Part shown: in pieces, positions 47,174 through 64,000 of the stretch
How positions within the stretch are numbered: position 1 is the first letter of the stretch
Layout: the number at the start of each line of letters is the position of its first letter
Assembly: GCA_026396115.1 (NCBI GenBank)
Contig: JAPLXL010000005.1
Coordinates: 66,967-130,966, forward strand
Direction of reading: 5' to 3'
DNA length: 64,000 bases
Source: Candidatus Nealsonbacteria bacterium
GTDB lineage: Bacteria; Patescibacteriota; Minisyncoccia; Minisyncoccales; RBG-13-42-11
The notes under the pieces: model-generated
The model's database searches: none
Told to the model about the DNA's origin: nothing
What the model saw: only the letters and a program-made list of their open reading frames with translations
Translations under genes and position numbers: made by a program

Positions 47174-48499
47174 ATGGAAAACCAAAACAAAGATCAACCT
47201 CTGGCAGACAGAATAAGACCTTATTCTCTTGATGACTTTTTTGGTCAGGAAGAAATAGTGGGAGAAAAGAAGTTGTTAAGGCAAGCCATAGAATCTGACA
47301 GATTGCCCTCAATGATTTTTTGGGGGCCCCCGGGAAGCGGAAAAACTACTTTGGCTTTTATTATTGCCAAACAAACCAAATCAGAATTTTATCAAACGAG
47401 CGCTGTTTCCTGCGGCTTGAAAGAATTAAAACAAGTAATAGACGAGGCGAAAAACAATGCCAAACTCGGCAAAAAAACAATATTTTTTTTAGACGAAATT
47501 CATCGTTGGAACAAAAGACAGCAAGATTCCCTTTTGCCGTTCGTAGAAAAAGGATTAATTCTTCTTATTGGCGCCACGACAGAAAATCCAAGTTTTGAAG
47601 TGATAAGCCCTTTGCTTTCAAGGTGCCAAGTTTTTGTTTTCAAACCACTTAACAGAAAACATATTTCGAAAATAATCAACAAAGCCCTAAAAAACAAAGA
47701 GAAGGGATTCGGCAACCTAAATATTAAGATTGAAAAAAACATTATTGATATCATAGCTCAAATGAGCAACGGAGACGCCAGAAAAGCTCTTAATGTTATA
47801 GAATACGCTGTCTTAACCTCACCCAACTTTGAATATTTTCAACTATCAAAATCCAAAAAGAACCAGGGCAAAGAGACTTCGTCTCTTCTTCCCCCTCGCT
47901 CCGCTCGGGAGGGCGGAGAAAATGAAATAAAAATCACGGCTGATATTGTAAAAGAATCCTTTCAAAAATCTTACTTGCTTTATGATAAAGGAGGGGAAGA
48001 GCATTATAATATTATTTCCGCCCTTCATAAATCAATAAGAGGATCTGACGCCGATGCTGCTCTTTATTGGTTAGCCAGGATGATTGAAGCAGGAGAAGAT
48101 CCTTTATATATTGCCAGAAGAATTATCCGTTTTGCCTCAGAAGACATAGGTCTGGCTAATTCGCGCGCCTTAGAGCAAGCAGTGGCTGTTTATCAAACAT
48201 GTCATTTTATTGGAGTGCCGGAATGCAATCTGGCATTGGCTCAAGCAGTGGTTTATATGGCAAAATGTAAAAAATCAAATGAGCTCTATGTTGCTTATGA
48301 AAAAGCTGCTCGCGATGTTAAAGAATACGGAAATTTGCCGATTCCTCTGCATCTGCGTAACGCTCCCACTCAATTAATGAAAGATTTAGGATATGGTGAA
48401 GATTACAAATACAGCCCAAATTTTAATTACAAGGAAAAACAGGAATATTTTCCCGAAAAATTAAAGAGAAGGAAATATTTCAAAAACCATAAAGATTAA
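47174..48499 (+). CDS. rarA: replication-associated recombination protein A (AAA+ ATPase)
   Basis: LADRIRPYSLDDFFGQEEI, Walker A GPPGSGKTT, FFLDEIHRWNK, GATTENPSFE, SIRGSDADAALYWLARMIEAGEDP. Confidence 0.9.
   Translation: MENQNKDQPLADRIRPYSLDDFFGQEEIVGEKKLLRQAIESDRLPSMIFWGPPGSGKTTLAFIIAKQTKSEFYQTSAVSCGLKELKQVIDEAKNNAKLGKKTIFFLDEIHRWNKRQQDSLLPFVEKGLILLIGATTENPSFEVISPLLSRCQVFVFKPLNRKHISKIINKALKNKEKGFGNLNIKIEKNIIDIIAQMSNGDARKALNVIEYAVLTSPNFEYFQLSKSKKNQGKETSSLLPPRSAREGGENEIKITADIVKESFQKSYLLYDKGGEEHYNIISALHKSIRGSDADAALYWLARMIEAGEDPLYIARRIIRFASEDIGLANSRALEQAVAVYQTCHFIGVPECNLALAQAVVYMAKCKKSNELYVAYEKAARDVKEYGNLPIPLHLRNAPTQLMKDLGYGEDYKYSPNFNYKEKQEYFPEKLKRRKYFKNHKD
47867..47918 (-). repeat. double-hairpin palindromic element (E) copy inside rarA CDS
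   Basis: GGCAAAGAGACttcGTCTCTTCTTCCCCCTCGCTCCGCTCGGGAGGGCGGAG encodes GKETSSLLPPRSAREGGE between conserved RarA blocks. Confidence 0.65.
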
Positions 48500-48527
48500 A
48501 GCGCTATCAATTGAAAAATTTGAAGAA

Positions 48528-48950
48528 TTGGTAAACGAAGGAATTAAAGCTATCCCTAAGGGGTTTTTGGAAAAATTAGATAATGTAGAGATTATTGTTG
48601 AAGAAACACCTACCCCGGAACAATTAAGAAAACTAAAAATCAGAAAAGGTTCTTTTCTTTTTGGTTTATATGAAGGCGTTCCTCAAACAAAAAGGTGGCG
48701 CTACGGACAGGTTTTACCGGACAAAATAACAATTTTTAAAAATCCAATTGAAAGAGTAGCTCGTTTTAAAGAGTCGGCAAGGGCGAAGAGAACAAGTTCT
48801 CTTCTTCACCTTCGTCCCGCTTCGCGAGACTCGGTAATCAAAGAAATTGTTAAAAATACGGTCTGGCACGAAATTGCTCATCATTTTGGCATGGATGAAA
48901 AAAGAGTAAGACAAGCCGAATCTCACCGAATTGAAAAAATTAATTTGTAA
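48528..48950 (+). CDS. zincin-like metallopeptidase family protein (DUF1025-like)
   Basis: NVEIIVEETP, FGLYEGVP, TVWHEIAHHFGMDE (HExxH). The start is uncertain: the frame stays open upstream to 48489 without an ATG. Confidence 0.65.
   Translation: MVNEGIKAIPKGFLEKLDNVEIIVEETPTPEQLRKLKIRKGSFLFGLYEGVPQTKRWRYGQVLPDKITIFKNPIERVARFKESARAKRTSSLLHLRPASRDSVIKEIVKNTVWHEIAHHFGMDEKRVRQAESHRIEKINL
48781..48834 (-). repeat. E element copy inside the metallopeptidase CDS
   Basis: GGGCGAAGAGAACaagTTCTCTTCTTCACCTTCGTCCCGCTTCGCGAGACTCGG encodes RAKRTSSLLHLRPASRDS. Confidence 0.65.
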
Positions 48951-48952
48951 AA

Positions 48953-49004
48953 GTCGAAGAGAGCTTCACTCTCTTCTTCACCTTCGCTTCCTTCGGAAAC
49001 TCGG
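48953..49004 (-). repeat. E element copy, intergenic, ending 3 nt before ATG 49008
   Basis: GTCGAAGAGAGCttcaCTCTCTTCTTCACCTTCGCTTCCttcGGAAACTCGG. Confidence 0.7.
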
Positions 49005-49007
49005 TAT

Positions 49008-49862
49008 ATGAAAAAACCTTTAATTTTGGGTTTAATTTTAATAATCCTGGCCGGAGGAATTTGGTTTTTCTGGCCCTTTTTTCAATTAGAACTTTTAGAA
49101 GTTAAAATCGCTCTACCAAAAATTGTAAAATTGGCAGAAAAAGAAATTTCTCTCCCACCGCCTCTTCAAGCAGTAGAAAAAGAAAAACCCGAGGTAATTT
49201 TAACTCAACAAGGTGTAATTGAATGGACAAATATCCAGAGAAAAAAATACGGTCTTTCCGCATTTGAAGAAAATTCAAAGTTAAACGCCATGGCTCAGGC
49301 TAAAGTTGAAGATATGTTCCAAAATCAATATTTTTCCCATTATTCTCTTTTGGGTGAAGGGGTAGGGGATTTGGCAAAAGATTTTGATTACGAATTTCTT
49401 GCTATTGGCGAAAATTTAGCTATGGGTAATTTTGAAAGCGATGAAAATTTAGTTGAGGCCTGGATGGCAAGTCCCGGTCACCGAGAAAATATTCTAAGTC
49501 AAAGCTATCGGGAAATCGGGGTAGCTATTCAAAAGGGCATATTTAACGGAAATTCAGTTTGGCTGGCAGTCCAGCACTTTGGACTTCCGCTTTCAGCCTG
49601 CCCTCAGCCAAGCGAAATAATTAGATTGGAAATTGAAAAAAATCAGCAGGAACTTGAAGAACTTCAAGGATTATTACCGGAAGCTCTGAGCGAGCTGCAA
49701 GCAATGAGACCAAAACGGACAAGTTTTTATCAGCAAAAATTAGAAGAATACAATAATTTAGTGGAGAAATATAATAATCTTTTAGCAGAAAATAAAACGC
49801 TTATTGATCAATATAATGCAGAAATTCAACAATTTAATCAGTGTATTGTTGAGTTAAGATAA
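49008..49862 (+). CDS. CAP/SCP domain protein with C-terminal coiled coil
   Basis: N-terminal TM. YFSHYS, GENLAMG, VEAWMASPGHRENIL, YREIGVA. Confidence 0.75.
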   Translation: MKKPLILGLILIILAGGIWFFWPFFQLELLEVKIALPKIVKLAEKEISLPPPLQAVEKEKPEVILTQQGVIEWTNIQRKKYGLSAFEENSKLNAMAQAKVEDMFQNQYFSHYSLLGEGVGDLAKDFDYEFLAIGENLAMGNFESDENLVEAWMASPGHRENILSQSYREIGVAIQKGIFNGNSVWLAVQHFGLPLSACPQPSEIIRLEIEKNQQELEELQGLLPEALSELQAMRPKRTSFYQQKLEEYNNLVEKYNNLLAENKTLIDQYNAEIQQFNQCIVELR

Positions 49863-49914
49863 ACCAGTTATTTACTATTTTTACTCGGCTTTTATCATCT
49901 TTTCGGCCTACTTT

Positions 49915-49947
49915 AAAACCCGAGGGAAGACATCCCGCGGGTTTTTA
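49915..49947. terminator. bidirectional terminator between convergent genes
   Basis: AACCCG-a-GGGA-agaca-TCCC-g-CGGGTT, flanked by AAAA and TTTTT. Confidence 0.6.
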
Positions 49948-49952
49948 CTCAA

Positions 49953-50000
49953 CCATCGAGCGTCAGTAAAGAGGGGAGAAGAACTAACGTTCTTCAACCC
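49953..50000 (+). repeat. E element copy overlapping the 3' end of efp
   Basis: CCATCGAGCGTCAGTAAAGAGGGGAGAAGAACtaacGTTCTTCAACCC. The efp stop and last codons (VEER*) lie in its second hairpin. Confidence 0.55.
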
Positions 50001-50553
50001 TTCTTACATATTCGCCTTTTTCGGTATTTACCTCAATAATATCTCCTTCTTTAATAAAGAGAGGAACATTGATATTGTCTCCTGTTTCCAGCTTTACTGT
50101 TTTTGTGCCGCCTTGGGCTCTGTCACCCTTAACACCCGGAGGCGCTTCAATGACTTTCAATTGAACCTTAATTGGTAGAGAAATATTAATTATCTTACTT
50201 TGAAATTGAACTCCCTCAATAATTTCATTCGGCTTTAAAAAAATAACACTCTCTCCTATGGTTTCTTTCGGTAATTCAAAACGAGCCGAAGAATTATTCT
50301 CTTTAGAAAAGAAAAACTTATCTCGGTGGAAATAGAGAAATTTTACTTTTATTTTTTCAATTTCTGCTATTTCAAACTCTTCGCCGGGATGGAAAGTTTT
50401 GGAAATAACATTGCCGGTAATTAAGTTTTTAATTTTTGTCTGAACAATAGAACTGCCCCTTCCTTTAAAAACAAAAGATGAATCTAAAACCTCGTAGGGC
50501 TGGTCGTCCAAAATAAGTCTTATCCCTTTTTTCAAATCATTGTGCGACAACAT
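49984..50553 (-). CDS. efp: elongation factor P
   Basis: 189 aa. NDLKKGIRLILDDQPYEVLDSSFVFKGRGSSIVQTKIKNLITG, PPGVKGDRAQGGTKTVKLETG. Confidence 0.9.
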   Translation of the reverse strand: MLSHNDLKKGIRLILDDQPYEVLDSSFVFKGRGSSIVQTKIKNLITGNVISKTFHPGEEFEIAEIEKIKVKFLYFHRDKFFFSKENNSSARFELPKETIGESVIFLKPNEIIEGVQFQSKIINISLPIKVQLKVIEAPPGVKGDRAQGGTKTVKLETGDNINVPLFIKEGDIIEVNTEKGEYVRRVEER

Positions 50554-50603
50554 ATTGTTAATTGTTATTATTCAACTTACGATGTTGAATATGGGATGGT
50601 AAT

Positions 50604-51650
50604 TCACTTCAGTATTGCGCCTATAAAATCCAAGTGACCTCTTATAAAATCTTCGGCTATCATTTCTTTTTTACCTTCCATTTGTAATTTTTCAATAAGC
50701 AAAAAATCTTTTTTACACTGGATGCCAATTTCATTTTGAGGAACGACTAATACCTTACCAATAGGGTATTTAATTTTATCCGGTGACTTAAAAACCCTGG
50801 CTTTTAAAACTTTAATTTTTATTAATTTGCCTTTATTTTCCCAAATTATATAACTGCCCGGCCAAGGATAAAAAGTCCTAATTTCTCTTTCTAATAGTTC
50901 TACCGGTTTTTTCCAATCTATTTTTCCGTCTTTTTTGAATAAAATTTTCGTGAAAGTTACCTGAGCATCATCTTGTTCTTTAGGTTTTATCAGCCCTTTA
51001 ACCCATTTGGGAATAGTTTCTAATAGTAGGTAAGCGCCCAATTGAGCTAATTTATTATGAAGGGTCTCTGCGGTTTCTTGTTCTTTAATTTCTAAGCTTT
51101 TTTGAGAGATGATCGGACCATGATCAATTTTTTCATCCATTAAAATTATTGTCACCCCGGATTTTTTTTCGCCATTTAAAATAGTAAATTGAATTGGTGA
51201 AGGTCCGCGATATTTTGGCAATAATGAAGGATGAATGTTCAAAAAACCAAATTTGGGAATATCTAATATATCTTTCGGGATTATCTGACCATAGGCTGCC
51301 AGAATTCCTAAATCTGGTTTTAAATTTTTAATTTTTAATTTTAAATGGGCGAAGAAGGCTTGCCTTCTTCTTCCCCCTTCGCTATCGCTCGGGAGAGCGA
51401 AGACGGCTTTGCCGTCTTCTTTCGCCTCGCTCCGCTGCCGCGGAACTCGGCTTTCAATTCTTTCTGGCTGTTCAACCGGAATACCATATTTCCGGGCAAC
51501 CACTTTGACCGGTGGGGGAGTTAAAATTTGTTTCCTGCCTACGGGTTTATCGGGCGAGCTAATAACCAAAACGGGCGGGTAGCCGCCTTTGATTAATTCT
51601 TCCAAGATAATAGCGCCAAACTCCGGCGTTCCTATAAAAATTATTTTCAT
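50604..51650 (-). CDS. fmt: methionyl-tRNA formyltransferase with ~37-aa insertion
   Basis: MKIIFIGTPEFG, NIHPSLLPKYRGPSPIQ. ATG at 51650 (ATGA overlap with the upstream gene). The ESRVPRQRSEAKEDGKAVFALPSDSEGGRRRQAFFAH segment is absent from the Fmt sequences I know. Confidence 0.9.
   Translation of the reverse strand: MKIIFIGTPEFGAIILEELIKGGYPPVLVISSPDKPVGRKQILTPPPVKVVARKYGIPVEQPERIESRVPRQRSEAKEDGKAVFALPSDSEGGRRRQAFFAHLKLKIKNLKPDLGILAAYGQIIPKDILDIPKFGFLNIHPSLLPKYRGPSPIQFTILNGEKKSGVTIILMDEKIDHGPIISQKSLEIKEQETAETLHNKLAQLGAYLLLETIPKWVKGLIKPKEQDDAQVTFTKILFKKDGKIDWKKPVELLEREIRTFYPWPGSYIIWENKGKLIKIKVLKARVFKSPDKIKYPIGKVLVVPQNEIGIQCKKDFLLIEKLQMEGKKEMIAEDFIRGHLDFIGAILK
51347..51395 (-). repeat. E element copy a inside fmt CDS
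   Basis: GGGCGAAGAAGGCttgCCTTCTTCTTCCCCCTTCGCTATCGCTCGGGAG. Confidence 0.65.
51397..51450 (-). repeat. E element copy b inside fmt CDS (tandem with copy a)
   Basis: GCGAAGACGGCtttGCCGTCTTCTTTCGCCTCGCTCCGCTGCCGCGGAACTCGG. Confidence 0.6.
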
Positions 51651-52324
51651 TTGACTATTCTCCATTCTATTTCTTCTTTCTTGCCAGCGAATTCAAGCCA
51701 ATTTCCGCCCTCATCAATAACATACCATTTTCTTTTGGTTTCTGACCAGACCATTAGATTACCCAGAAAATAAGGTTTTTTAACAATTTCTTTTGGTTTT
51801 AATTTGTCCAACTCCAGCCATTTTTTAAATACGGTTTCAATGGCATAATCCAAACCGCGGGAATTTGCCCATTCAGCCACTTTATCAATAGCTTTTTTGG
51901 CTCTTTCAACAGAACCGGCTAATTCCACCAACTCTTTTGCCGGCCGAGTGAATCTCGAATAAACTATCTTTCTTTTTTTGGCATTTCTTTTAAGTTCCGT
52001 CAAAGATACTCCTTTCGTTTCAAAATAATGCGTTATCACCTGTTGGATAGCTGTTTCTTTTTTTAATTCCTCAAAATACTTAATTTTACCTTTATCTAAA
52101 TATTCTTTAACTTTTTCTGATATACTTTTACCAATACCCGAAATTTCTTTAATGCCCGCAAGACCTTTTTCTTTATAAAGCAGAGAAACATCTTTATCTA
52201 AGTTTTCCAAAGATTGCGCCGCTTTCCGGTAGGCGGACGGCTTAAAGATTATCCCTTTTATTTCAAGAAGTTCCGCAATTTCATAAAATATCTTTGCAAT
52301 TTTTTTATTATTCATATTTTTCAA
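51647..52324 (-). CDS. helix-hairpin-helix protein (PolX N-terminal-like) with unknown C-terminal domain
   Basis: IAKIFYEIAELLEIKGIIFKPSAYRKAAQSLENL...IKEISGIGKSISEKVKEYL resembles the 8-kDa/HhH part of family X polymerases. No polymerase core. Confidence 0.5.
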   Translation of the reverse strand: MKNMNNKKIAKIFYEIAELLEIKGIIFKPSAYRKAAQSLENLDKDVSLLYKEKGLAGIKEISGIGKSISEKVKEYLDKGKIKYFEELKKETAIQQVITHYFETKGVSLTELKRNAKKRKIVYSRFTRPAKELVELAGSVERAKKAIDKVAEWANSRGLDYAIETVFKKWLELDKLKPKEIVKKPYFLGNLMVWSETKRKWYVIDEGGNWLEFAGKKEEIEWRIVK

Positions 52325-52868
52325 CTGTAAATTTATAAATTATAATTTTTTCTTTTCCGGGATTAATTCCTCCTTTCTGACAAGCAATGGAAATTTGTTG
52401 TTCTATGGTATCAACTTCTTCTAAATCCGGCAGCAAAAGCCCTGATTTAAAGGGAACTCGGTCGTCAAACACCACATCCTCATCGGGATAGGCAAAAGGG
52501 GCTGTTTTTACAATTATACCAAATTTTTTAGGATTCAAGGTTTCCATATCTTTGACTGGTTCGGGATAACTTAAAACATAAACTGTATAAGAAAGGTAGG
52601 GGAGTTCTTCTTCTTTAATTGGCGAAAAACGATAATCTTCAGTAGCGGCAGCCACTGCATTATGAATGATTTCCTCGGCTATATTTATTTTGGTCGGCAA
52701 ATAAGTCCCAATACAGCCCTTCAACTTACCATCTTTTTCAATAGTAACAAAGGTTCCGGATTTTCTCCCGAGAAACTCTTCCGGTAAATCTTTTGGTACT
52801 TCAATAATTTTTCCATCTTTTATGTAATTTTCCACCGCCTTTTTGGCAAGTAAAACGTAAGGGTTCAT
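52308..52868 (-). CDS. AMMECR1 domain protein (AmmeMemoRadiSam system protein A-like)
   Basis: 186 aa. SGTFVTIEKDGKLKGCIGT, DYRFSPI. Confidence 0.8.
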   Translation of the reverse strand: MNPYVLLAKKAVENYIKDGKIIEVPKDLPEEFLGRKSGTFVTIEKDGKLKGCIGTYLPTKINIAEEIIHNAVAAATEDYRFSPIKEEELPYLSYTVYVLSYPEPVKDMETLNPKKFGIIVKTAPFAYPDEDVVFDDRVPFKSGLLLPDLEEVDTIEQQISIACQKGGINPGKEKIIIYKFTVEKYE

Positions 52869-52874
52869 AAAATT

Positions 52875-53249
52875 TTACAATCTATTTTTTTTCAAGTCTT
52901 CGTTAATTTGTATTATCTGTTGTTTAATTCTTTCGGCTTCGTTTTCTACTGTTTCGCCTTCATATTCGCCGGCGTGAGCCGGAGCGCCTTTGTAAATTGG
53001 CCGTTTTTGATCCAAGTGCAAATTAAAAATTAAATTTTCATTTTCCCGAGCGTCAGCGAAGGGGGAAGAAGAAAGTTTACTTTCTTCGCCCTCAATTTTC
53101 AAATAAATATGAAATCTCGGATAACCTTTTGGAGGCCGAGTAAAGATGAACTCTTTCTTTTCTTTATCTTCTTTCTGGAAATGATATCCAATTTTTCTCA
53201 TCAAGCTATAAAGATTTTCGTTAAAAGGCCCCTTTAAGCCAAATTTCAT
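52875..53249 (-). CDS. hypothetical protein carrying an E element
   Basis: 124 aa. No recognisable motif. The EGEESKLSSSPFADARE segment is encoded by the repeat. Confidence 0.45.
   Translation of the reverse strand: MKFGLKGPFNENLYSLMRKIGYHFQKEDKEKKEFIFTRPPKGYPRFHIYLKIEGEESKLSSSPFADARENENLIFNLHLDQKRPIYKGAPAHAGEYEGETVENEAERIKQQIIQINEDLKKNRL
53045..53091 (+). repeat. E element copy inside hypothetical CDS
   Basis: CCCGAGCGTCAGCGAAGGGGGAAGAAGAAAGtttaCTTTCTTCGCCC. Confidence 0.6.
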
Positions 53250-53290
53250 ATTATTTTAATTTCTACTAATTTTGGTTCTCTGTCCATTAA

Positions 53291-54655: not shown

Positions 54656-54659
54656 ATTT

Positions 54660-55280: not shown

Positions 55281-55299
55281 ATTATTTTAAGGCGATGAG

Positions 55300-56343
55300 C
55301 TAAAGCTCATCTTGACGCTTCGCTAATGCTTGCGTTATTAAATTTAAATTTTCTCCGCATTTTGAGCATTTGCCTTGTTTATCATAGCGGGAAATAACAT
55401 AACCCGTTCTATCAATTACCAAGGCATTACATTTCGGGCAGAAAGTGTCTTCTGAAGGAAGACCGGGAACGTTCCCAGTATAGACGTATTTTAAACCTGT
55501 TTCTTTTCCAATTCTATAAGCCATTTCCAGAGTCTCAACCGAGGTCTCCGGTAAGTGCTGTAATTTCCAAGAAATGGCTCCGGAAAACTGGCTGATATGC
55601 CAGGGAGTTTCAGTCCCCAATTCTTCCTTAATAAATTTAGCAATATCTCTAAACATTTCTTTCGAATCTGAAAGAGTAGGAATTACTAAAGTTGTTATTT
55701 CCGTCCAAACTCCGTATTTTTTCATTAATTTGGCGGTATCTAAAACCGGTCTAAGCCGCGCTCCGCAAACCTTTTTATAAAATTCTTCGGAAAAACTTTT
55801 TATATCGATATTAATGGCATCGAGATAGGGGATTACTAATTTGGCTGATTCTTTTGACATAAATCCATTGGAAACAAAATTATTCTTTAAACCTGCTTTT
55901 TTGGCTAACTTCATTGTGTCCAGGGCATACTCCAAAAAGATAACTGGTTCCGTGTAAGTGTAAGAAATGCTCGGTAATTTATTTTTTAAAGCAATTTTAA
56001 CAATCTCTTTTGGCGATAAATCCTCGCCCGGAATTTCTTTTGTCACTTTGAAACCTTGAGAAATGTCACTGTTTTGGCAGTTAGCGCATTTCAAATTGCA
56101 ACCAACCGTAGCAATTGATAATGAATAAGTTCCCGGTAAAAAATGGAAAAACGGCTTTTTTTCGATTGGGTCAATATGTATAGCAACAGTTTTGCCATAA
56201 ACTAATGAATAAAGTTTACCATCAATGTTTTCTCTCACGCCACAAATTCCACGTTTACCCGGCGAAATAACGCAGTAATGAGCACAATTTAAACACTGAA
56301 TTTTCTTATCTTTTAATTTTTTGTATAAATAAGCCTCTTTCAT
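55300..56343 (-). CDS. AmmeMemoRadiSam-system radical SAM enzyme (PflA-like)
   Basis: N-terminal CLNCAHYC, core GCNLKCANCQN, C-terminal CPKC...CSKCG. Confidence 0.8.
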   Translation of the reverse strand: MKEAYLYKKLKDKKIQCLNCAHYCVISPGKRGICGVRENIDGKLYSLVYGKTVAIHIDPIEKKPFFHFLPGTYSLSIATVGCNLKCANCQNSDISQGFKVTKEIPGEDLSPKEIVKIALKNKLPSISYTYTEPVIFLEYALDTMKLAKKAGLKNNFVSNGFMSKESAKLVIPYLDAINIDIKSFSEEFYKKVCGARLRPVLDTAKLMKKYGVWTEITTLVIPTLSDSKEMFRDIAKFIKEELGTETPWHISQFSGAISWKLQHLPETSVETLEMAYRIGKETGLKYVYTGNVPGLPSEDTFCPKCNALVIDRTGYVISRYDKQGKCSKCGENLNLITQALAKRQDEL

Positions 56344-56384
56344 GATTCTTTAATTGTAGACCTTTTTATGATAAAATTCAATCG

Positions 56385-56954: not shown

Positions 56955-58294
56955 AAATACACTTTATTGGTATTGGCGGAATTGGGGTTTCCGCCTTAGC
57001 TCAGTATTATCTATCCAAAGGCCATAAAGTCAGCGGCTCGGATTTAGTTTCTTCCGAAATCACCGAAGCCCTAAAAGAAAAAGGAGTTAAGCTCTTTATT
57101 GGCAGGCATAAAGCTGAAAATTTACCAAAAAGAGTAGATATGGTAATTTACAGTCCGGCCGTATCAACAGATAACCCCGAATTAAAAGAAGCTAAAAAAA
57201 AAGAAACTAAATATTTAAGTTATCCTGAAGCTCTTGGAGAATTAACCAAGAAATATTTTACAATTGCGGTTTCCGGCACTCATGGAAAAAGTACGACCAC
57301 GGCGATGATTGGACTTTTATTGGTTAAGGCCGGTTTGGATCCAACGGTAATTATTGGAACAAAACTAAAAGAATTCGGTGACACTAACTGCCGGGTAGGG
57401 AAGTCAAGGTATTTAGTCATTGAAGCTGATGAATATATGGCTTCTTTTTTAAACTATTGGCCTAAAATTATCGTTTTGCCTTCAATTGAAAAAGACCATC
57501 TTGATTATTATAAAAATCTAAATAATATTCTTAAATCATTCAAAGAATATATTTTCCATCTGCCGAAAGACGGGACTTTGGTCAAAAATAATGACGACAA
57601 AAATATCAGAAAAATAATATACACAGGTAACACCTGTGTCTATTCGCTGAAACAGCCAGAAGCTAAAAAATTAAAGAAAATTTTAAAAATACCGGGAGAA
57701 CATAACATTTCTAATGCTTTGGCAGCTTTAACTGTTGCCAGAATTTTAAAAATTCCGGATAGAATTTCTTTCAAAGCCCTGTCGGAATATAAGGGTTCCT
57801 GGCGGCGTTTCGAAGAAAAAAAGATAAAAATAAGGCGCAACGAGAACAGTTCTCGTTGCGTTAATTTAATATCGGATTACGGACATCATCCTACTGAAAT
57901 AAAGGTAACCCTTAAAGCGGCGCGGGAAAAATATCCAGAAAAGAAAATCTGGTGCGTTTACCAGCCCCACCAATATCAAAGAACATATTATTTATTTGCT
58001 GATTTTGTAAAAGCTTTCAAACAAGCCCTTAGACCAACTCAAGGCAAACCCCAGATGGACAAAATAATAATCACAGATATTTATGACGTGGCTGGCAGGG
58101 AAGAGAAAAATATAAAAAAGAAGGTTAGTTCACAAAAATTGGTAAAAGCGGTTAAAAAAAACAAGGTAATTTATCTGCCGAAAGAGAAAATATTAGATTA
58201 TCTTAAAAAAAACCTGTCTAATTTTGATATTTTAATAATTATGGGGGCCGGAGACATTTATACCATTGCTAACTACTTGACAGAAAAACACTAA
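56936..58294 (+). CDS. murC: UDP-N-acetylmuramate--L-alanine ligase
   Basis: IHFIGIGGIGVSALA, VSGTHGKSTTTAM, DYGHHPTEI. Confidence 0.9.
   Translation: MPAQKLKIHFIGIGGIGVSALAQYYLSKGHKVSGSDLVSSEITEALKEKGVKLFIGRHKAENLPKRVDMVIYSPAVSTDNPELKEAKKKETKYLSYPEALGELTKKYFTIAVSGTHGKSTTTAMIGLLLVKAGLDPTVIIGTKLKEFGDTNCRVGKSRYLVIEADEYMASFLNYWPKIIVLPSIEKDHLDYYKNLNNILKSFKEYIFHLPKDGTLVKNNDDKNIRKIIYTGNTCVYSLKQPEAKKLKKILKIPGEHNISNALAALTVARILKIPDRISFKALSEYKGSWRRFEEKKIKIRRNENSSRCVNLISDYGHHPTEIKVTLKAAREKYPEKKIWCVYQPHQYQRTYYLFADFVKAFKQALRPTQGKPQMDKIIITDIYDVAGREEKNIKKKVSSQKLVKAVKKNKVIYLPKEKILDYLKKNLSNFDILIIMGAGDIYTIANYLTEKH
57836..57860. repeat. 12-bp perfect inverted repeat inside murC
   Basis: CGCAACGAGAAC-a-GTTCTCGTTGCG encodes RNENSSRC. 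It resembles the second hairpin of the E element. Confidence 0.5.
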
Positions 58295-58338
58295 TAAAAG
58301 AAAATGGAAGTAGAACTCCGATCAAGGTCGAATCATTT

Positions 58339-58391
58339 ACCGAGCTTCCGAAGGAAGCGAAGGTGAAGAAGAGGATGAAGTCCTCTTCGAC
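58339..58391 (+). repeat. E element copy, intergenic (near-consensus)
   Basis: ACCGAGCTTCCgaaGGAAGCGAAGGTGAAGAAGAGGAtgaagTCCTCTTCGAC. Confidence 0.7.
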
Positions 58392-58425
58392 TTAAATTTT
58401 TCATTTTTAACTTTTAATTTTTAAT

Positions 58426-58566: not shown

Positions 58567-58672
58567 ACTAAGACCCGGGTGACAATGAAGGGAAAATAAA
58601 AGAAAATAAAATTAGAAAAACAAAGGTCGGAAAGAAGATTGAAAAAAGATTGTTAATCAATAAACTTTGCTT

Positions 58673-58747
58673 ATGACGTGGCTTTATATAATTTTGGCCG
58701 TGGTGGTTATCGGAGTAGTAATTTATCTGGTAACCAAAAAAAAGTAG
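58673..58747 (+). CDS. small hydrophobic peptide (24 aa), hypothetical
   Basis: MTWLYIILAVVVIGVVIYLVTKKK, followed by a terminator. Confidence 0.25.
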   Translation: MTWLYIILAVVVIGVVIYLVTKKK

Positions 58748-58772
58748 GAAACAGGAATGTAGTACCAAAAAT

Positions 58773-58802
58773 CCCGCTGCGTTTGGCACGGCGGGTTTTT
58801 TG
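58773..58802 (+). terminator. rho-independent terminator
   Basis: CCCGCTG-cgtttggca-CGGCGGG + TTTTTT. Confidence 0.6.
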
Positions 58803-58896
58803 GGAATCAATTAATAATCTCTTAACTAAAAAACCATCTCTTCAGGGCATGGTTTTTTATTGGAGAATATAGTATAATAAAAAATAACCTCGCACA

Positions 58897-58941
58897 CCCG
58901 AATCGCAATGAAGGGCGAAGAAGAGATTTATCTCTTCGACC
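58897..58941 (+). repeat. E element copy (partial) just upstream of aspS
   Basis: CCCGAATCGCAATGAAGGGCGAAGAAGAGAtttaTCTCTTCGACC. It creates the spurious N-terminal extension MKGEEEIYLFDHW in the track ORF. Confidence 0.55.
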
Positions 58942-58964
58942 ACTGGGACACAAGCAATAAAATT

Positions 58965-60344
58965 ATGCAAAGAGTATTAAATATAGAAACGATCAAATAT
59001 ATTAATAAAAATGTTAAAGTTTGCGGTTGGGTTAATTCACGTCGGGACCACGGCGGAATAGTTTTTTTAGATTTAAGAGACAGGTCGGGAATTCTACAGA
59101 TAGTCGTCACTCCCACCGCCGAGTTGGCAAAAGATATAAAAAATGAATATGTTTTAGAAATTGAAGGAAAAATCCAGAAAAGACCGATTAAAATGTTCAA
59201 TCCCGAACTGGAAACAGGAGAGATAGAATTGAAAGCCGAAAATATCAATATCTTAGCTAAGGCTGAAACGCTTCCTTTTGATTTAAAAGATTTAAATGTG
59301 AGCTTGCCCGTTCTTTTAGATTACAGGCCAATAACCTTACGGAATAAAAAAATTCAAGCAATTTTCAAAATTGAAGAAGAGGCGATTAATAGTTTCAGGA
59401 AAACAATGAAAGATTTGGGATTTGCCGAATTCCAAGCGCCGACAATCGTGCCGGTTGCCACCGAAGGCGGAGCAGAAGTTTTCCATATTGATTACTTTAA
59501 TGGAGATGCTTATTTAGCCCAAAGCCCCCAATTATATAAGCAAATCTTAGTTGGCGTTTTTGAAAGAATTTTTACTATAACGCGCGCTTATCGGGCCGAA
59601 CCCAGCGTGACCACCCGCCATCTGACAGAATATATCAGTTTGGATGCAGAAATGGGCTTTATCAATTCTTGGCAAGATTTAATGGATTTTTGCGAAACCG
59701 TAATCAGAAACATCTTTTTGGATTTAGGAAAAAGCTGCCAAAAAGAGTTAAAATTATTTTCAGCCACTCTTCCCAAATTAGGCGAGAAAATTCCAAGATT
59801 AAAAATGAAAGAAGCTCAAGAAATTATTTTCAAAAGAACCCAAAGGGATAATAGGGAATCTCCGGATTTGGAACCGGAAGACGAAAAAGAAATCTATGAA
59901 TTTGCCAAAGAAAAATACGGCTCAGAATTAATCTTCATCTCTCACTATCCAACTAAAAAAAGGCCTTTTTACACTTTCCCTGACCCAAAAGATCCCGAAT
60001 ACACTTTAAGCTTTGATCTTTTGTGCCGTGGATTGGAAATAGTCACCGGCGGCCAGAGAATTAATGATTATGAAAAATTGGTGAAAAATATAAAAAAACG
60101 GAAAATGAAGATTAAAGATTTTAAGTTTTATTTGCAGGCATTTAAATACGGCATGCCGCCTGAGGGTGGTTTTTGTTTGGGAGCCGAAAGAATAGTTAAG
60201 CAAATTCTGGATTTGGAAAATGTTCGGGAAGCCAGTTTATTCCCGCGGGATATGGCGAGAATCGACCAAAGATTATCTGTTTCTAAAAAAAGAAACCCCC
60301 GAAGAAAAACAAGTTCTCTATCGGGTAATAAGTTGAAAAAATGA
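58965..60344 (+). CDS. aspS: aspartate--tRNA ligase (short, no GAD insertion; possibly non-discriminating)
   Basis: VCGWVNSRRDHGGIVFLDLRDRSGILQIV, FRAEPSVTTRHLTEY (motif 2), GMPPEGGFCLGAERIV (motif 3). I prefer ATG 58965. Confidence 0.75.
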   Translation: MQRVLNIETIKYINKNVKVCGWVNSRRDHGGIVFLDLRDRSGILQIVVTPTAELAKDIKNEYVLEIEGKIQKRPIKMFNPELETGEIELKAENINILAKAETLPFDLKDLNVSLPVLLDYRPITLRNKKIQAIFKIEEEAINSFRKTMKDLGFAEFQAPTIVPVATEGGAEVFHIDYFNGDAYLAQSPQLYKQILVGVFERIFTITRAYRAEPSVTTRHLTEYISLDAEMGFINSWQDLMDFCETVIRNIFLDLGKSCQKELKLFSATLPKLGEKIPRLKMKEAQEIIFKRTQRDNRESPDLEPEDEKEIYEFAKEKYGSELIFISHYPTKKRPFYTFPDPKDPEYTLSFDLLCRGLEIVTGGQRINDYEKLVKNIKKRKMKIKDFKFYLQAFKYGMPPEGGFCLGAERIVKQILDLENVREASLFPRDMARIDQRLSVSKKRNPRRKTSSLSGNKLKK

Positions 60345-61408
60345 ATTCAAGAAGCGAGTTTCCATTAAAGTCCTCTTCGCCCACCGAGCTTCCGCAGGAA
60401 GCGAAGGTGAAGAAGAGAGCGAAGCTCTCTTCGCCCATAAAAATTTTTCTTATTGTTTTTATATTAAGCTTGCCTATTTTCTGGGAGATTAATATTTTGG
60501 AAGGAAAGTTGAAAAGTTTTTTTTATTGGCGAGAAATTGCGGAAAATCCTCAATTTTTGGCTGCTCAGGCAAATCAATTAATTCTTGAACAAAAATTAAG
60601 AAATTTAGAGCCCTTCAGGAATAAAAATATTCCTGATTTGGAAATTGAAGCCAAATCAGCAATTTCGGTTCTGAACGATAATAAAGTTAAAGAAAAAGTG
60701 CTTTTTGAAAAAGAAAATAATCAAAAACTGCCAATAGCCAGTTTAACCAAACTGATGACCGCCTGGGTTGTCTTGGAATATTATGATCTTTCAAAAGAAA
60801 TCACAATTTCTAAATTGGCAGCTAATCAATATGGGGATATTAGAGGGCTGGAAGATGGAAGAACTTTTCCGGTAAAATATTTTCTTTATCCTTTATTGAT
60901 GGAATCAAGCAATGGGGCTGCTTTCGCTTTGGCTAATGATTATGAAGAAATGTCAGAAAGAAATTTTGTGGAATTAATGAACCAAGAAGCAAAAAAAATT
61001 GGGCTTGACGATACTTTTTTTAACAATCCCAGCGGCCTTGACCCGGAAGATTCAAAAACAGAAATGAATTATTCAACGGCCAATGATTTGGTAAAGCTTG
61101 CTAAAAAATTATTAGAAAAACAATTAATTTGGGATATACTTTCCATCCCCAGATATTCTGAGTACGGACCGGAATTAATTAACACCAACAGGTTTTTAAT
61201 TGACGATCCTGCAGATTGGCAAGAAAAAATAATTGGCGGAAAAACGGGTTATACGGACAAAGCCGGAGGATGCTTGCTTTTGGTTATAAAAGCGCCAAGA
61301 TCCCAGGGTTTTTTAATTAGTATAATTTTGGGGGCAGACGGAAAAGAAAACAGATTTGAAGAAATGAGAAAGCTAATTGACTGGCTTAACCAAGCCTATA
61401 AATGGTAA
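60341..61408 (+). CDS. D-alanyl-D-alanine carboxypeptidase (S11)
   Basis: IASLTKLMT (SxxK), ESSNGAA (SxN), GKTGYT (KTG). The N-terminus before the TM is repeat-encoded. Confidence 0.8.
   Translation: MNSRSEFPLKSSSPTELPQEAKVKKRAKLSSPIKIFLIVFILSLPIFWEINILEGKLKSFFYWREIAENPQFLAAQANQLILEQKLRNLEPFRNKNIPDLEIEAKSAISVLNDNKVKEKVLFEKENNQKLPIASLTKLMTAWVVLEYYDLSKEITISKLAANQYGDIRGLEDGRTFPVKYFLYPLLMESSNGAAFALANDYEEMSERNFVELMNQEAKKIGLDDTFFNNPSGLDPEDSKTEMNYSTANDLVKLAKKLLEKQLIWDILSIPRYSEYGPELINTNRFLIDDPADWQEKIIGGKTGYTDKAGGCLLLVIKAPRSQGFLISIILGADGKENRFEEMRKLIDWLNQAYKW
60383..60436 (+). repeat. E element copy inside the dac CDS N-terminus (preceded by a half copy at 60351-60382)
   Basis: ACCGAGCTTCCgcaGGAAGCGAAGGTGAAGAAGAGAGcgaaGCTCTCTTCGCCC encodes TELPQEAKVKKRAKLSSP. 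Confidence 0.7.
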
Positions 61409-61412
61409 TATT

Positions 61413-62558
61413 ATGTACTTGCCTGAAGCAGCCATAGATGTTATTAAAATTTTTACTTTGGGAACAGTTAGTTTTATTATTGCTTTTTTGCTAACGCCCT
61501 TTTTAACTTATTTTTCGTATAAATATAAACTCTGGCGCAAAGAAGTAAGGCAAAAAGCAATTGACGGCGGAGAGGTAACCGTTTTTCAAAAATTTCACAA
61601 AGAAGGAGAAATAAATGTTCCAAGAATGGGCGGAATTTTAATTTGGGGAACGATCTTGATAACAATTTTTTTGTTTTGGGGAATTTCGCAAATAACTGAT
61701 ATTTGGTGGTTGGATAAGTTGAATTTTTTAAGCAGAAGTCAAACATGGCTTCCTCTTTTTGCTTTAATCGCAGCTTCTTTATTAGGCCTAACCGACGATG
61801 TCTTGCAGGTTTTTGGCTCGCCTTCATACCATAACGAAAAAAAAGTGCCAAAGGCTTTAAAATTAATAAAATCATTTTTCGTTTGGTGTGGGGGTAAAGG
61901 AAAATATATTGGCGGCGGATTAAGCTTAAAACGGAGAATTCTTTTGATGGGTTTAATAGGTCTTATTGGAGGTTGGTGGTTTTTTGCCAAACTTGGCTGG
62001 TCTACCTTGCATGTGCCCGGGGCGGGAGATTTTGAAATTGGCACTTGGTATATTCCTTTATTTGTTGTTGTTATGATAGCCACCTATTCAGGCGGGGTAA
62101 TTGACGGTTTGGATGGGTTAGCAGGCGGTTCTTTTGCTGCTATTTTTGCCGCTTTCGCCGGAATTGCTTTGTTTTTGGGCCAAATTGATATTGCCGCTTT
62201 CTGCACAGCAATCTTAGGAGCATTGCTGGCCTTTTTATGGTTTAATATTCCGCCTGCCAGATTCTATATGGGAGAGAGTGGAATAATGGGACTCTGTGCC
62301 GCTTTAACCGTGATTGCTTTTTTAACTGATTCTGTTTTAGTTTTGCCAATTATTGGATTTTTATTAGTAATTGAGTCGGGCTCCGTAATCCTGCAGCTTC
62401 TTTCAAAAAAGTTTAGACATAAAAAAATCTTTTTATCTGCTCCAATTCACCAGCACTTTGAAGCCAGTGGCTGGCCCCATTATAAAGTAACAATGCGATT
62501 TTGGATTATCGGGGCAGTGATGGCAATTGTTGGAATTACCATTAGATTATTCGGCTAA
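61413..62558 (+). CDS. mraY: phospho-N-acetylmuramoyl-pentapeptide transferase
   Basis: GLTDDVLQV, DGLDGLAGG, GESGIMGLC, multi-pass membrane protein. I prefer ATG 61413. Confidence 0.85.
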   Translation: MYLPEAAIDVIKIFTLGTVSFIIAFLLTPFLTYFSYKYKLWRKEVRQKAIDGGEVTVFQKFHKEGEINVPRMGGILIWGTILITIFLFWGISQITDIWWLDKLNFLSRSQTWLPLFALIAASLLGLTDDVLQVFGSPSYHNEKKVPKALKLIKSFFVWCGGKGKYIGGGLSLKRRILLMGLIGLIGGWWFFAKLGWSTLHVPGAGDFEIGTWYIPLFVVVMIATYSGGVIDGLDGLAGGSFAAIFAAFAGIALFLGQIDIAAFCTAILGALLAFLWFNIPPARFYMGESGIMGLCAALTVIAFLTDSVLVLPIIGFLLVIESGSVILQLLSKKFRHKKIFLSAPIHQHFEASGWPHYKVTMRFWIIGAVMAIVGITIRLFG

Positions 62559-62580
62559 AAAATCCTCTAAAAATATCTCA

Positions 62581-62647
62581 GTCGAAAGAGAATTTCATTC
62601 GTCGAGTCAAAGACGAGACGAAAGAAGAAAAACTTTTCTTCGCACTC
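62581..62647. repeat. degenerate E-related repeat, intergenic
   Basis: GTCGAAAGAGaatttcattCGTCgagtcaaaGACGagaCGAAAGAAGAAAAacTTTTCTTCGCAC. Confidence 0.4.
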
Positions 62648-62705
62648 TTTTTTATCCCATTAGAAATATTTATTTATAATGGGGTTTGTGCTATTCTGAA
62701 AGCAG

Positions 62706-62761
62706 GTCGAAGATAGCTTCGCACTCTTCTTTATCTTCGCTTTCGCTGTGCGAAAGCTCGG
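62706..62761 (-). repeat. E element copy ending 3 nt before the murD ATG
   Basis: GTCGAAGATAGCttcgcaCTCTTCTTTATCTTCGCTTTCGCtgtGCGAAAGCTCGG. Confidence 0.6.
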
Positions 62762-62764
62762 AGA

Positions 62765-64000
62765 ATGAAATTAAAAGAATTAAAGAGCAAAAGAATCCTG
62801 ATTTTGGGTTTTGGCCGGGAGGGAAGGAATACTTTTAGGTTTTTAAGGAAACTCTTTCCAAAAAAAGTTTTAGGAATAGCGGATAAAAATGAAAAAGTTG
62901 ACCAAAGTTGCTTAGCTACCGAGCTTCCATTTATGGAAGCGAAGGTGGAGAAGAAGGAATCTTCTTCGACTAAGCTAAGCAACCGAAAGATCAAGTTTTA
63001 TAAGCTTCATTTGGGAGAAAATTACCTTAAGGTTCTGAATGATTACGATGTGATAATCAAATCACCGGGCATCCCTTTCAAAATTATTCCGAGATCGGAA
63101 CTACGAAAATTGACTTCACAGACAGAGATTTTTTTTGATAATTACCAAGGCCAAATTATTGGAATTACGGGAACTAAAGGGAAAGGCACTACAGCTGCAA
63201 TGATTTATGAAATTTTGAAAGTAGAAGGCATCAAAGCACATTTAATCGGCAATATTGGTAAACCCGTATTAAATCTTTTACCGAGACCCACGAAGTGGGG
63301 CGAAGGGGGAGATGAAGCAAGGCTTCAGCGACCATTTTCGGCGAGACCAGATGTTTATGTTTATGAATTGTCCAGTCATCAACTTTACGATCTTAAAAAA
63401 TCTCCCCACATCGCCGTTTTTTTAAACCTTTTTGCGGACCATTTAGATTATTATCGAAATTTTAAAGAATACGCAGACGCCAAAGCCAATATTACCATTC
63501 ATCAAAAAAAAGATGATTATTTGGTCTATAATGCTCAAGATAAAATTGTTAAAGAAATTGCTAAAAAATCAAAAGCTAAAAAAGTTCCAATCAAAGGAGA
63601 GTATTACGAATTGAATAAAGTTGCAGCCAGGGCCGTCGGCAGACTTTTCAAAATTTCTTCAAAAATTATTGAAAAAGCTATTAAAGAATTTAAACATCTT
63701 CCTCATAGATTGGAATTGGTAGGAACATTTGAAAGAATTACTTTTTATAATGACGCCTCGGCAACCATACCCGAAGCAACTATGGCAGCTATGGAAACTT
63801 TAGGAAATAAAGTAGAAACAATTATCCTGGGTGGTTCTGACAAGAATATTGATTTTAAGAATTTAGCCAAAAAAGTTTTAGAAAGTAAAATAAAAACTGT
63901 AATTTTATTTCCTATAACTGGAAAACGAATCTGGAAAGATATTGTGCGACAAAAAAGAAAGGAAACGAACAGAAAGGGTAGGGTACTGAATCATTTTTTT
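62765..64000 (+). CDS. murD: UDP-N-acetylmuramoylalanine--D-glutamate ligase, 3' end beyond window
   Basis: Not in the track (no stop in window). My translation: MKLKELKSKRILILGFGREGRN, IIKSPGIP, GITGTKGKGTTAAM, YELSSHQL, HRLELVG. Two repeat-encoded insertions. Confidence 0.85.
   Translation, partial: MKLKELKSKRILILGFGREGRNTFRFLRKLFPKKVLGIADKNEKVDQSCLATELPFMEAKVEKKESSSTKLSNRKIKFYKLHLGENYLKVLNDYDVIIKSPGIPFKIIPRSELRKLTSQTEIFFDNYQGQIIGITGTKGKGTTAAMIYEILKVEGIKAHLIGNIGKPVLNLLPRPTKWGEGGDEARLQRPFSARPDVYVYELSSHQLYDLKKSPHIAVFLNLFADHLDYYRNFKEYADAKANITIHQKKDDYLVYNAQDKIVKEIAKKSKAKKVPIKGEYYELNKVAARAVGRLFKISSKIIEKAIKEFKHLPHRLELVGTFERITFYNDASATIPEATMAAMETLGNKVETIILGGSDKNIDFKNLAKKVLESKIKTVILFPITGKRIWKDIVRQKRKETNRKGRVLNHFF
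62918..62970 (+). repeat. E element copy inside murD CDS (with extra 8-bp outer stem at 62910-62980)
   Basis: GCTTAGCT-ACCGAGCTTCCatttatGGAAGCGAAGGTGGAGAAGAAGGAatCTTCTTCGAC-t-AAGCTAAGC encodes LATELPFMEAKVEKKESSSTKLS. Confidence 0.7.
63280..63333 (+). repeat. E element copy inside murD CDS
   Basis: ACCGAGACCCACgaaGTGGGGCGAAGGGGGAGATGAAGCaaGGCTTCAGCGACC encodes PRPTKWGEGGDEARLQRP, between GNIGKPVLNLL and DVYVYELSSHQL. Confidence 0.65.

Follow-up and report, generated by a model that had tools for sequence, protein, structure and literature searches.

What are the short palindromic segments that recur within and between the core genes of a Candidatus Nealsonbacteria contig, and why do so many of them lie in the reading frames of essential enzymes? 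An earlier note on a 64,000-nucleotide (nt) stretch of this DNA (contig JAPLXL010000005.1 of assembly GCA_026396115.1, positions 66,967 to 130,966; this whole stretch is called the window below) had listed at least 14 copies of a ~53-nt element with two consecutive hairpins, and had likened it to the Rickettsia palindromic element (RPE). Our analysis of the sequence and its relatives points to a selfish, non-autonomous mobile repeat, translated when genic, in the core genome of a Parcubacteria-type lineage of the Patescibacteria, or candidate phyla radiation (CPR). We put the probability of this reading at about 0.85.

A check of the window sequence located all 14 listed copies. A core 21-mer matched five times at ≤3 mismatches (0 matches in 100 shuffles), and a gapped core pattern matched six times (0 in the shuffled control). 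We built a covariance model (CM) from an alignment of eight long copies and its RNAalifold structure of 17 pairs, and ran it over the entire window with filters off. The model retrieves all 14 known copies, 12 of them at E ≤ 5e-4 and the degenerate efp copy (49955) at E = 0.044, and adds two more, at 47016 and 55290 (Table 1). The total in the window is 16 copies, every one within 47.0 to 63.4 kb. No CM match with E < 0.3 occurs in the accessory zone at 1 to 46.5 kb, and the probability of finding 16 of 16 copies within 27% of the window by chance is ~1e-9. The sole family trace in that zone is a fragment at 21752-21770, previously reported as a half copy at 21748. It is not significant by the CM alone, and its exact 19-mer, GACGAAGTCCTCTTCGCCT, recurs in full copies on two other contigs (L084:3670 and L046:3394); positions 60370-60382 hold another solo 3' half. 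The G+C content of the copies is 0.42 to 0.67, against 0.33 to 0.37 in their surroundings. The earlier picture of one coherent family, richer in G+C than its context and nearly absent from the accessory zone, is thus borne out, and the model finds copies in related genomes as well. The accessory zone may be younger or exchanged DNA that the element has yet to colonize.

Read in orientation A, our reference direction on the strand beginning ACCGAG, the element has a covarying 3-bp outer stem (ACC/GGT) around an internal loop in which GA (5' side) and CGAA (3' side) are conserved. Hairpin 1 has 5 to 7 bp of hypervariable, nearly free sequence. A purine-rich linker (TG-AAGAAG) separates it from hairpin 2, which has a conserved base (GAAGAG/CTCTTC) and a variable tip and is followed by the end G-MCY. 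Long copies measure 51 to 58 nt, whereas in a short subtype of 44 to 48 nt hairpin 1 is cut to a few bases and the outer stem is CCC/GGG. The double-hairpin fold described earlier is seen in each window copy; the outer stem and the GA/CGAA internal loop are additions to it.

Compensatory double changes affect 9 of the 17 pairs among the eight long copies (RNAalifold). Across a wider set of 117 copies from 41 sources collected with the CM (set 1), covariation extends to every stem: the outer stem takes the forms ACC/GGT, ATC/GAT, AGC/GCT, and CCC/GGG, and hairpin 2 the forms GAAGAAGAG/CTCTTC, GAAGATGAG/CTCATC, GAAGACGAG/CTCGTC, and GAAAAGAG/CTCTTT. In this set, 95.7% of pair cells are Watson-Crick and just 2% are G-T. 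RNA structures seldom pair so cleanly, whereas DNA palindromes typically do. C-GAA-G is the loop of many copies; according to Hirao and colleagues, d(GCGAAGC), with a loop of this type, is reportedly a very stable DNA mini-hairpin, so that these loops fit with a hairpin formed at the DNA level. G-T mismatches outnumber A-C mismatches 35 to 19, a difference that is too weak for choosing an RNA strand and is biased by the orientation of the model.

Copies are gained, lost, and replaced between near-identical strains. The window was compared with two close relatives, the syntenic contigs L112 (European Nucleotide Archive) and L114 (GCA_030692425.1), whose flanks are mostly 90 to 99% identical to it, and with a more distant relative, L003, at ~70% DNA identity. 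The site of the zincin copy (48781) is empty in L112, with flanks 95 to 98% identical. The short fmt copy (51347) is missing from L112 and both fmt copies are missing from L114, where the dac N-terminal copy (60383) also corresponds to a precise 54-nt absence between flanks 96 to 99% identical; the solo half-element at 60370-60382 is kept in this empty allele. A site in a LigT gene is empty in the window, holds one short copy in L112, and in L114 holds the same copy with a long copy nested within it, and a mid-dac site is filled in L114 alone. In L003, murD copy 63280 is precisely absent (51 nt), and a short-type copy lies at almost the same site as murD copy 62918; L003 carries one murD copy and two tandem dac copies that are missing from the window.

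Other sites are filled in more than one strain. At the rarA site (47866), L112 holds a different variant between flanks 97 to 99% identical; at the efp site (49955), L114 has the same variant and L112 a different one; and at the site upstream of murD (62705), L114 has a diverged variant and L003 also has a copy (5819-5875). [quoted passage not shown] We used the divergence of element against flank between strains qualitatively only, the flank estimate being inflated by nearby indels. The loss of copies is apparently clean.

The copies lie 3' of TTCA-N3 or, more loosely, TT[C/G]A. Motif analysis covered the 25 nt upstream of orientation A in set 1 and in a second wider set of 134 hits (129 nonredundant) from 49 metagenome loci, taken from independent metagenome contigs of the Joint Genome Institute (JGI). 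Positions −6/−5/−4 are T in 68%, C in 56%, and A in 56% of 116 copies of set 1, and T in 86%, C in 63%, and A in 67% of the 129 copies of set 2 (p ~1e-31 to 1e-33). The 3' flank has no motif in either set. Empty alleles already contain the motif, in forms such as TCAAT, TTAAAA/TTGAAA, TTGAC, TCAAAA, and TTGATT.

No target-site duplication is found at ~10 filled/empty junctions, which bears on the reading of the element as a classical MITE (miniature transposable element with inverted repeats), that is, an insertion sequence (IS) remnant with terminal inverted repeats that is moved by a DDE transposase and duplicates its target. The element is indeed small, non-autonomous, abundant, and polymorphic between strains, and its two ends are weakly alike (NCCGAG versus the reverse complement GNCGAAG). 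However, besides the lack of duplication, the flank motif is one-sided, the length of 45 to 58 nt is below the 70 to 300 bp typical of MITEs (PMC3733652), and the two hairpins are unlike each other, with no long terminal inverted repeats where 15 to 30 bp would be expected. Given the missing inverted repeats and duplication, we regard a DDE-type MITE as very improbable.

The target rule extends to start codons. In set 1, exactly 2 nt separate the end of 21 of the 117 copies from an ATG opening an ORF (open reading frame) of at least 60 codons, and in set 2, 34 of 129 copies are followed by NN-ATG at the same offset; in the window, copy 48952-49005 stops exactly 2 nt short of the CAP-domain gene's ATG (49008), and copy 62705-62762 stops 2 nt short of that of murD (62765). 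Since the reverse complement of TTCAT-WW is WW-ATGAA, many copies come to lie exactly 2 nt upstream of start codons, and ATGAA start codons are frequent natural landing sites. What had been noticed as three intergenic copies ending within ~25 nt of a start codon therefore follows a precise rule, from TTCA-N3 to 2 nt before ATGAA.

These positions invite a different explanation, in which the element benefits its host as a cis-acting RNA (serving as 5'-leader or translation-initiation structure, mRNA stabilizer, or terminator), selection places it at gene boundaries, and the copies in ORFs arise as by-products. Such a function would account for the 18 to 26% of copies lying exactly 2 nt before an ATG in one orientation relative to the gene, for the 21 of those ATGs that open ORFs of at least 60 codons, for positions kept between 70%-identical genomes (for example, upstream of murD and aspS), and for a structure strongly kept through compensatory changes. 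However, the same NN-ATGA also follows copies within ORFs or precedes just 2 to 17 codons, and its occurrence with no gene behind it suggests a landing rule rather than a function. TTCA is enriched at ORF-internal copies (13/28 versus a 12% background, p = 9e-6) and pre-exists at empty sites, so that the ATG spacing looks like a consequence of the target. Copies within ORFs point either way, near-identical strains differ in which copies they have, even in essential genes, and very few pairs are G-U. Neither do the copies resemble intrinsic terminators: a scan for terminators and promoters flagged them just via an internal TCTTCTTC after partial stems, with no true T tract following. A search of 46.5 to 64 kb with Rfam 15 matched no family; two matches below the gathering thresholds, in the mraY-murD intergenic region (62543-62729), overlap copies 62601 and 62705 (snoMe28S-Am982, 31.6 versus 49 bits; EF3314_EF3315, 20 versus 100 bits). 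On this evidence we think a beneficial RNA element improbable.

The 3' end of the element itself, CTTCG-NNN, resembles the target, so that new copies stack behind old ones or nest within them. In fmt, the short copy 51347 lies directly 3' of the CTTCGCTC end of the long copy 51395, and dac copy 60383 lies behind the solo half-element. Tandem arrays also occur in L003, L096, L184, and L191, and nested copies occur in the LigT gene of L114 and in the hairpin-1 loops of L051 and L068. The family is mobile, recently active, target-biased, and duplication-free, with replacement at occupied sites.

Within genes, the copies add whole numbers of codons (15 to 19) with no stop and are open in the host frame. 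Net insert sizes at polymorphic genic sites are 48, 48, 48, 51, 54, 54, 57, 57, 90 (2 × 45), and ~60 nt. Matched length served as a proxy: among long-type copies, it is divisible by three in 24 of 30 that are ORF-internal versus 48 of 94 that are intergenic (p = 0.006). Both orientations (35 A and 23 B) and all three phases are used by ORF-internal copies, and no window gene is split by a copy; on frame, phase, and orientation, the earlier observations hold throughout. The genic copies lie in loops, linkers, or termini, such as the linker that joins the AAA lid of RarA to its MgsA_C domain (47866) and the cytoplasmic N-terminal tail of the carboxypeptidase (60383). The size pattern is what would be expected from a purifying filter on translated insertions.

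Alignment with solved homologues and orthologues indicates that the encoded segments are lineage- or strain-specific insertions. Residues 74-110 of Fmt, a 37-residue insert that includes the peptide SRVPRQRSEAKEDGKAVFA, have no counterpart in 4iqf or 1fmt, in agreement with the earlier remark that other Fmt proteins lack this segment, and are encoded jointly by copies 51347 and 51395. The MurD segment PRPTKWGEGGDEARLQRP, of ~18 to 20 residues (copy 63280), is absent from 3lk7 and 4buc, and RarA is ~28 residues longer than Escherichia coli MgsA (3pvs) exactly at the copy site. Among Fmt orthologues 83 to 94% identical, the window protein has two copies, P0001 and P0002 have one, P0003 and P0009 have remnants, and P0004 to P0008 have none. 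The long copy (51395) is present in L112, P0001, and P0002 and missing from L114 and P0004 to P0008, the short copy (51347) is absent from P0001 to P0010, and P0010 and P0023 carry partial or full copies at other sites. In a set of 83 Fmt sequences from Parcubacteria, eight positions bear inserts of 10 residues or more, with a hotspot after core positions 72 to 76.

The encoded peptides are hydrophilic and rich in S, E, K, R, G, and P. In an AlphaFold2 model of Fmt built on 83 aligned sequences, the mean predicted local distance difference test (pLDDT) score is 86, and scores below 50 are confined to residues 1-3 and 70-96, the latter covering most of the insert. The end of the insert prolongs the next helix, and confidence is high beyond about residue 101. 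The earlier note had proposed checking in structure models that such segments map to surface loops; here the model places most of the insert in a low-confidence loop.

We also weighed whether the genic segments escape translation, being cut from the mRNA or skipped by the ribosome. Precedents for skipping are the gap of T4 gene 60 and the mitochondrial "byp" elements, and stable hairpins in coding regions, together with the lack of a confident AlphaFold structure for most of the Fmt insert, would be in keeping with it. Nevertheless, all genic copies are open and made of whole codons, whereas intergenic copies come in all length classes, and not one gene of the window is interrupted; excision or bypass would lift exactly this constraint. 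Moreover, double-hairpin elements within genes of fungal mitochondria are reported to be retained in transcripts (PMC2800124). Escape from translation is, to our mind, extremely improbable.

Three observations concern other genic sequences near these sites. The murD copy 62918 sits at the center of an unrelated palindrome, GTTGCTTAGCT / AGCTAAGCAAC. In mraY, a separate in-frame insertion of 78 nt (61818-61895, +; 26 codons) forms one long imperfect hairpin of −26 kcal/mol; it does not belong to the double-hairpin family, is precisely missing from L114 and L003, and has its only other copy in the collected DNA at the same locus of L132. Fmt homologues P0076, P0079, P0098, P0099, P0106, and P0117 carry inserts of 12 to 42 residues at further positions; their peptides are unlike those of the present element, which suggests that additional in-frame insertion families may exist in CPR.

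A loop of murC (57834-57862) contains a perfect 12-bp palindrome, GCAACGAGAAC-A-GTTCTCGTTGC (57836-57860). The suggestion that it might be a decayed copy is not supported: it scores 8 bits (E = 2) and adds only four residues relative to Haemophilus influenzae MurC (1gqq).

One copy also affects gene calling. An ATG at 58908, within the repeat, opens the aspS/asnS-like ORF (MKGEEE...), and L003 302 is an equivalent case. An alignment of these two orthologues indicates that the true start is probably the downstream ATG at ~58964, the call within the repeat being an annotation artifact of a stop-free element; the same artifact is probably created elsewhere.

How might the element move? Two different hairpins near the ends, a short one-sided target, the lack of duplication, a right end like the target, near-perfect Watson-Crick stems, and DNA-favored loops are together consistent with a step through single-stranded DNA. 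By analogy, a folded single strand would be the transposition intermediate, a structure- and target-specific cut-and-paste ("peel-and-paste") of the IS200/IS605/RAYT kind (RAYT, a tyrosine transposase associated with REPs, which are extragenic palindromes that recur in a genome) would move it, and a candidate HUH enzyme would act in trans. We advance this route tentatively and judge its chances somewhat short of even. Like IS200/IS605 members, the element has a different hairpin near each end (here two hairpins with compensatory changes and ~96% Watson-Crick pairs, their recognition by a protein being putative), inserts 3' of a short one-strand motif, here degenerate, with no target duplication, excises apparently cleanly to leave a reusable target, and has a right end that resembles the target. 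In contrast to them, it is far below the size of any described member.

Several points weigh against this account of the element. With approximate queries for IS200 TnpA, IS608 TnpA, and the RAYT of E. coli, tblastn found nothing across 1.7 Mb of fragmentary DNA, a weak negative result. No autonomous version (left end, gene, right end) was found in 43 loci, in which apparent orphan ends were regular-expression misses only. Compared with the tetra- or pentanucleotide of classical IS200/IS605 elements, the motif is looser, and 3 nt separate it from the first base of the model; IS608 targets TTAC and ISDra2 targets TTGAT. Mutual information between flank motif and element positions revealed subtype effects only and no guide-target covariation of the IS608 kind. 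Near-perfect pairing could also come from RNA-level selection on both strands or from hairpin mismatch repair, and the retention of the segments in mRNA and protein is something we infer from frame conservation. Finally, the mechanism itself gives no account of the total absence of copies from the 46-kb accessory zone.

A bolder variant would be an undescribed transposition system, structure-guided, TTCA-N3-specific, and duplication-free, which would move folded single-stranded DNA with no recognizable IS200/RAYT enzyme and, through a preference for ATGAA start codons and permissive loops, continuously rewire 5' leaders and seed segments of 15 to 19 residues into essential CPR proteins. We hold this to be unlikely; if true, it would be a main source of the many lineage-specific inserts in CPR proteins.

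The closest functional analogue of this mobile repeat is the RPE, described by Ogata et al. in 2000, as summarized in PMC3184786 and PMC3733652. Both are selfish palindromic repeats of a reduced genome, with many copies in frame in the ORFs of functional, often essential proteins and others intergenic, and no cognate transposase is known for either. Here, the copies in fmt, murD (two), rarA, the zincin gene, and dac are open and absent from orthologues. The two differ in size (44 to 58 nt here versus ~105 to 146 nt in RPEs; PMC3184786) and in their ends, RPEs ending in a CGTC tag (PMC3733652) whereas the present element ends in NCCGAG and CTTCG-MCY, with neither CGTC nor GACG conserved. They share no sequence similarity, and their hosts are Alphaproteobacteria and Patescibacteria, respectively. 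The two-hairpin layout with its hypervariable first hairpin and the TTCA-N3 rule are, to our knowledge, not features of RPEs.

REPs and bacterial interspersed mosaic elements are built on single imperfect palindromes of 20 to 40 nt with a GTAG or CGTC tag and are associated with RAYT transposases (PMC3733652). Like the present copies, they are palindromes of short length, high G+C content, and conserved structure, found singly, in tandem, or inverted, and some lie within genes; they have been proposed to move as single-stranded hairpins via an HUH tyrosine transposase, with no duplication. In contrast, a REP is one palindrome plus a tag, whereas here there are two hairpins, an outer stem, and neither tag; REPs are mostly extragenic, downstream of genes; and the approximate RAYT query described above had no hit in the fragmentary DNA. 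Size, architecture, and end tags thus exclude membership in either family. The RPE-like label of the earlier note stands as far as it describes a coherent family of in-frame palindromic insertions, but not as an assignment to the RPE or REP families.

A further comparison is with short mobile elements of mitochondria (PMC2800124): the double-hairpin elements and the repetitive hairpin-forming elements, which the present element recalls in its architecture, and the GC clusters. They share with it the formation of one or two hairpins, compensatory stem changes, tandem and nested arrays, and occasional copies in protein and rRNA genes, which are kept in transcripts (PMC2800124). They differ in being organellar, unrelated in sequence, and mostly intergenic, and neither a defined target motif nor a link to start codons has been reported. 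In the searchable literature we came upon no account of such an element in CPR, and the Nealsonbacteria genome preprint mentions transposases only. With no Rfam family and no paper found that describes such a CPR element, the remark that no equivalent was known for this kind of genome holds. New here are the TTCA-N3 target rule, the landing at start codons, and the target-like end of the element.

The family is widespread in Parcubacteria genomes and metagenomes. We scanned 185,579 species genomes with a 19-base gapped pattern, and the CM confirmed true copies, among the matches listed, in the Parcubacteria-type metagenome-assembled genomes (MAGs) JAUSLA01 (very dense, with 12 copies in 8 kb), MHMH01, MNWE01, and JAVHRH01, in the complete Nealsonbacteria genome CP179888.1, in the Ca. 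Paceibacter normanii single-cell genome, and in several "binchicken" MAGs. A pattern with 29 specific bases matched at least 120 metagenome contigs from many JGI projects. Copy density is ~0.5 to 0.7 per kb in contigs that were fetched via the Fmt protein, not via the repeat.

Two sets of matches lie in other taxa. A 3-kb contig of a Methanosarcinales MAG (CAZSEK010000100.1, L073) holds a genuine short-type copy at 1014-1058; it could be a mis-binned episymbiont contig or a transfer, and Nealsonbacteria have been described as ectosymbionts of methanogenic archaea (preprint 10.1101/2022.04.20.488981). In Streptomyces, a near-identical GC-rich segment of 55 nt with a similar fold (L017 7021-7075, L052 2617-2671, and L035 3576-3630) scores 25 to 34 bits; the L017 match lies in an apparent coding segment with one reading frame open, and L063 5188-5242 and others were found by model score only. 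We read the Streptomyces matches not as copies but as chance resemblance picked by the search pattern, three hits sharing nearly the same sequence.

Table 1. Copies and fragments of the double-hairpin element in the window, with CM scores and occupancy in related contigs.
Feature	Position	Strand	Remarks
Isolated fragment GACGAAGTCCTCTTCGCCT (hairpin 2 loop, 3' arm, and end)	21752..21770	+	8 nt past serpin stop
Short-type copy, new, in hypothetical ORF 46793-47116(+)	47016..47062	+	CM 27.5 bits, E = 8e-6; L112 site filled too
Short-type copy, in frame in rarA (47174-48499+)	47866..47918	-	CM 34 bits
Long-type copy, in frame in zincin-like peptidase gene (48528-48950+)	48781..48835	-	CM 67.6 bits
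Long-type copy occupying zincin-CAP intergenic spacer	48952..49005	-	CM 74.3 bits; filled in L112 too
Degenerate short-type copy over last codons and stop of efp (49984-50553, minus)	49955..50000	+	CM 14 bits, E = 0.044
Short-type copy, in frame in fmt (50604-51665-)	51347..51393	-	CM 42.7 bits
Long-type copy, in frame in fmt	51395..51451	-	CM 64 bits
Short-type copy in hypothetical ORF 52875-53249(-)	53045..53091	+	CM 34.6 bits; 100% identical in L112 and L114
Divergent copy over 3' end of radical-SAM ORF 55300-56343(-)	55290..55335	-	CM 15.9 bits, E = 0.014
Long-type intergenic copy, 45 nt past murC stop	58339..58392	+	CM 75.3 bits
Short-type copy upstream of probable true aspS/asnS-like start	58897..58941	+	CM 27.8 bits
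Solo 3' half-element GTCCTCTTCGCCC, directly 5' of copy 60383	60370..60382	+	Junction alignment
Long-type copy, in frame in D-Ala-D-Ala carboxypeptidase gene (60341-61408+)	60383..60436	+	CM 76.6 bits
Degenerate short-type copy, intergenic past mraY	62601..62645	+	CM 21.1 bits, E = 5e-4
Long-type copy upstream of murD	62705..62762	-	CM 64.3 bits
Long-type copy, in frame in murD N-terminal domain	62918..62971	+	CM 62.9 bits; identical in L114
Long-type copy, in frame in murD central domain	63280..63333	+	CM 61.1 bits; between GNIGKPVLNLL and ELSSHQL strand

The host genes of Table 1 were identified with Pfam (rarA, a Zincin_1 protein, a CAP-domain protein, efp, fmt, murC, a class II aminoacyl-tRNA synthetase, a Peptidase_S11 carboxypeptidase, and murD), in agreement with the earlier assignments; that of mraY rests on the Glycos_transf_4 annotation of the L114 orthologue. 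Copy 55290 has the outer stem ACGC/GCGT and is identical in sequence in L112 and L114. The overlap of a copy with the 3' end of efp had been noted before; the low-scoring match is there, and the orthologous site is filled in both L112 and L114.

The accessory zone has features of its own. Its genes (1 to 46.5 kb) encode a serpin, a DNA methylase beside a type III restriction (Res) subunit, a second DNA methylase, a SIR2-like protein, and proteins with Gmad2/Germane and PsbP-like domains. A separate repeat with the hairpin AAAAATCGCCAAGAAGGCGGTTTTTTGGTAGAAT occurs there in eight copies (2718-45236) and resembles an intrinsic terminator joined to a −10 box (TAGAAT). Its copies, for example at 4590-4647, 7383-7440, 16712-16769, 18223-18280, and 36507-36564, stand between cassettes (serpin, methylase with Res, SIR2-like, Gmad2/Germane, and PsbP-like). 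At the border with the core lies a 102-nt direct repeat (44797-44898 and 46323-46424; 96% identity, 1.5 kb apart), and L112 has rearranged matches to this region.

CPR/Patescibacteria have genomes among the smallest and most streamlined of bacteria, yet here the repeat reaches ~0.5 to 1 copy per kb in core DNA and lies inside fmt, murD, dac, and rarA. It is a second, independent bacterial case of the phenomenon known from RPEs, in which peptide segments are born of mobile DNA; unlike in Rickettsia, many environmental strains are available for following gain, loss, and replacement. For annotation, it means start codons called inside copies and ORFs extended by them, and the assembly and binning of CPR MAGs may also be affected. 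The TTCA-N3 rule, the lack of duplication, and the landing at start codons offer a testable handle on mechanism, which for RPEs is still unsolved. What look like "lineage-specific inserts" in the proteins of CPR may be nothing more than copies of the double-hairpin element.

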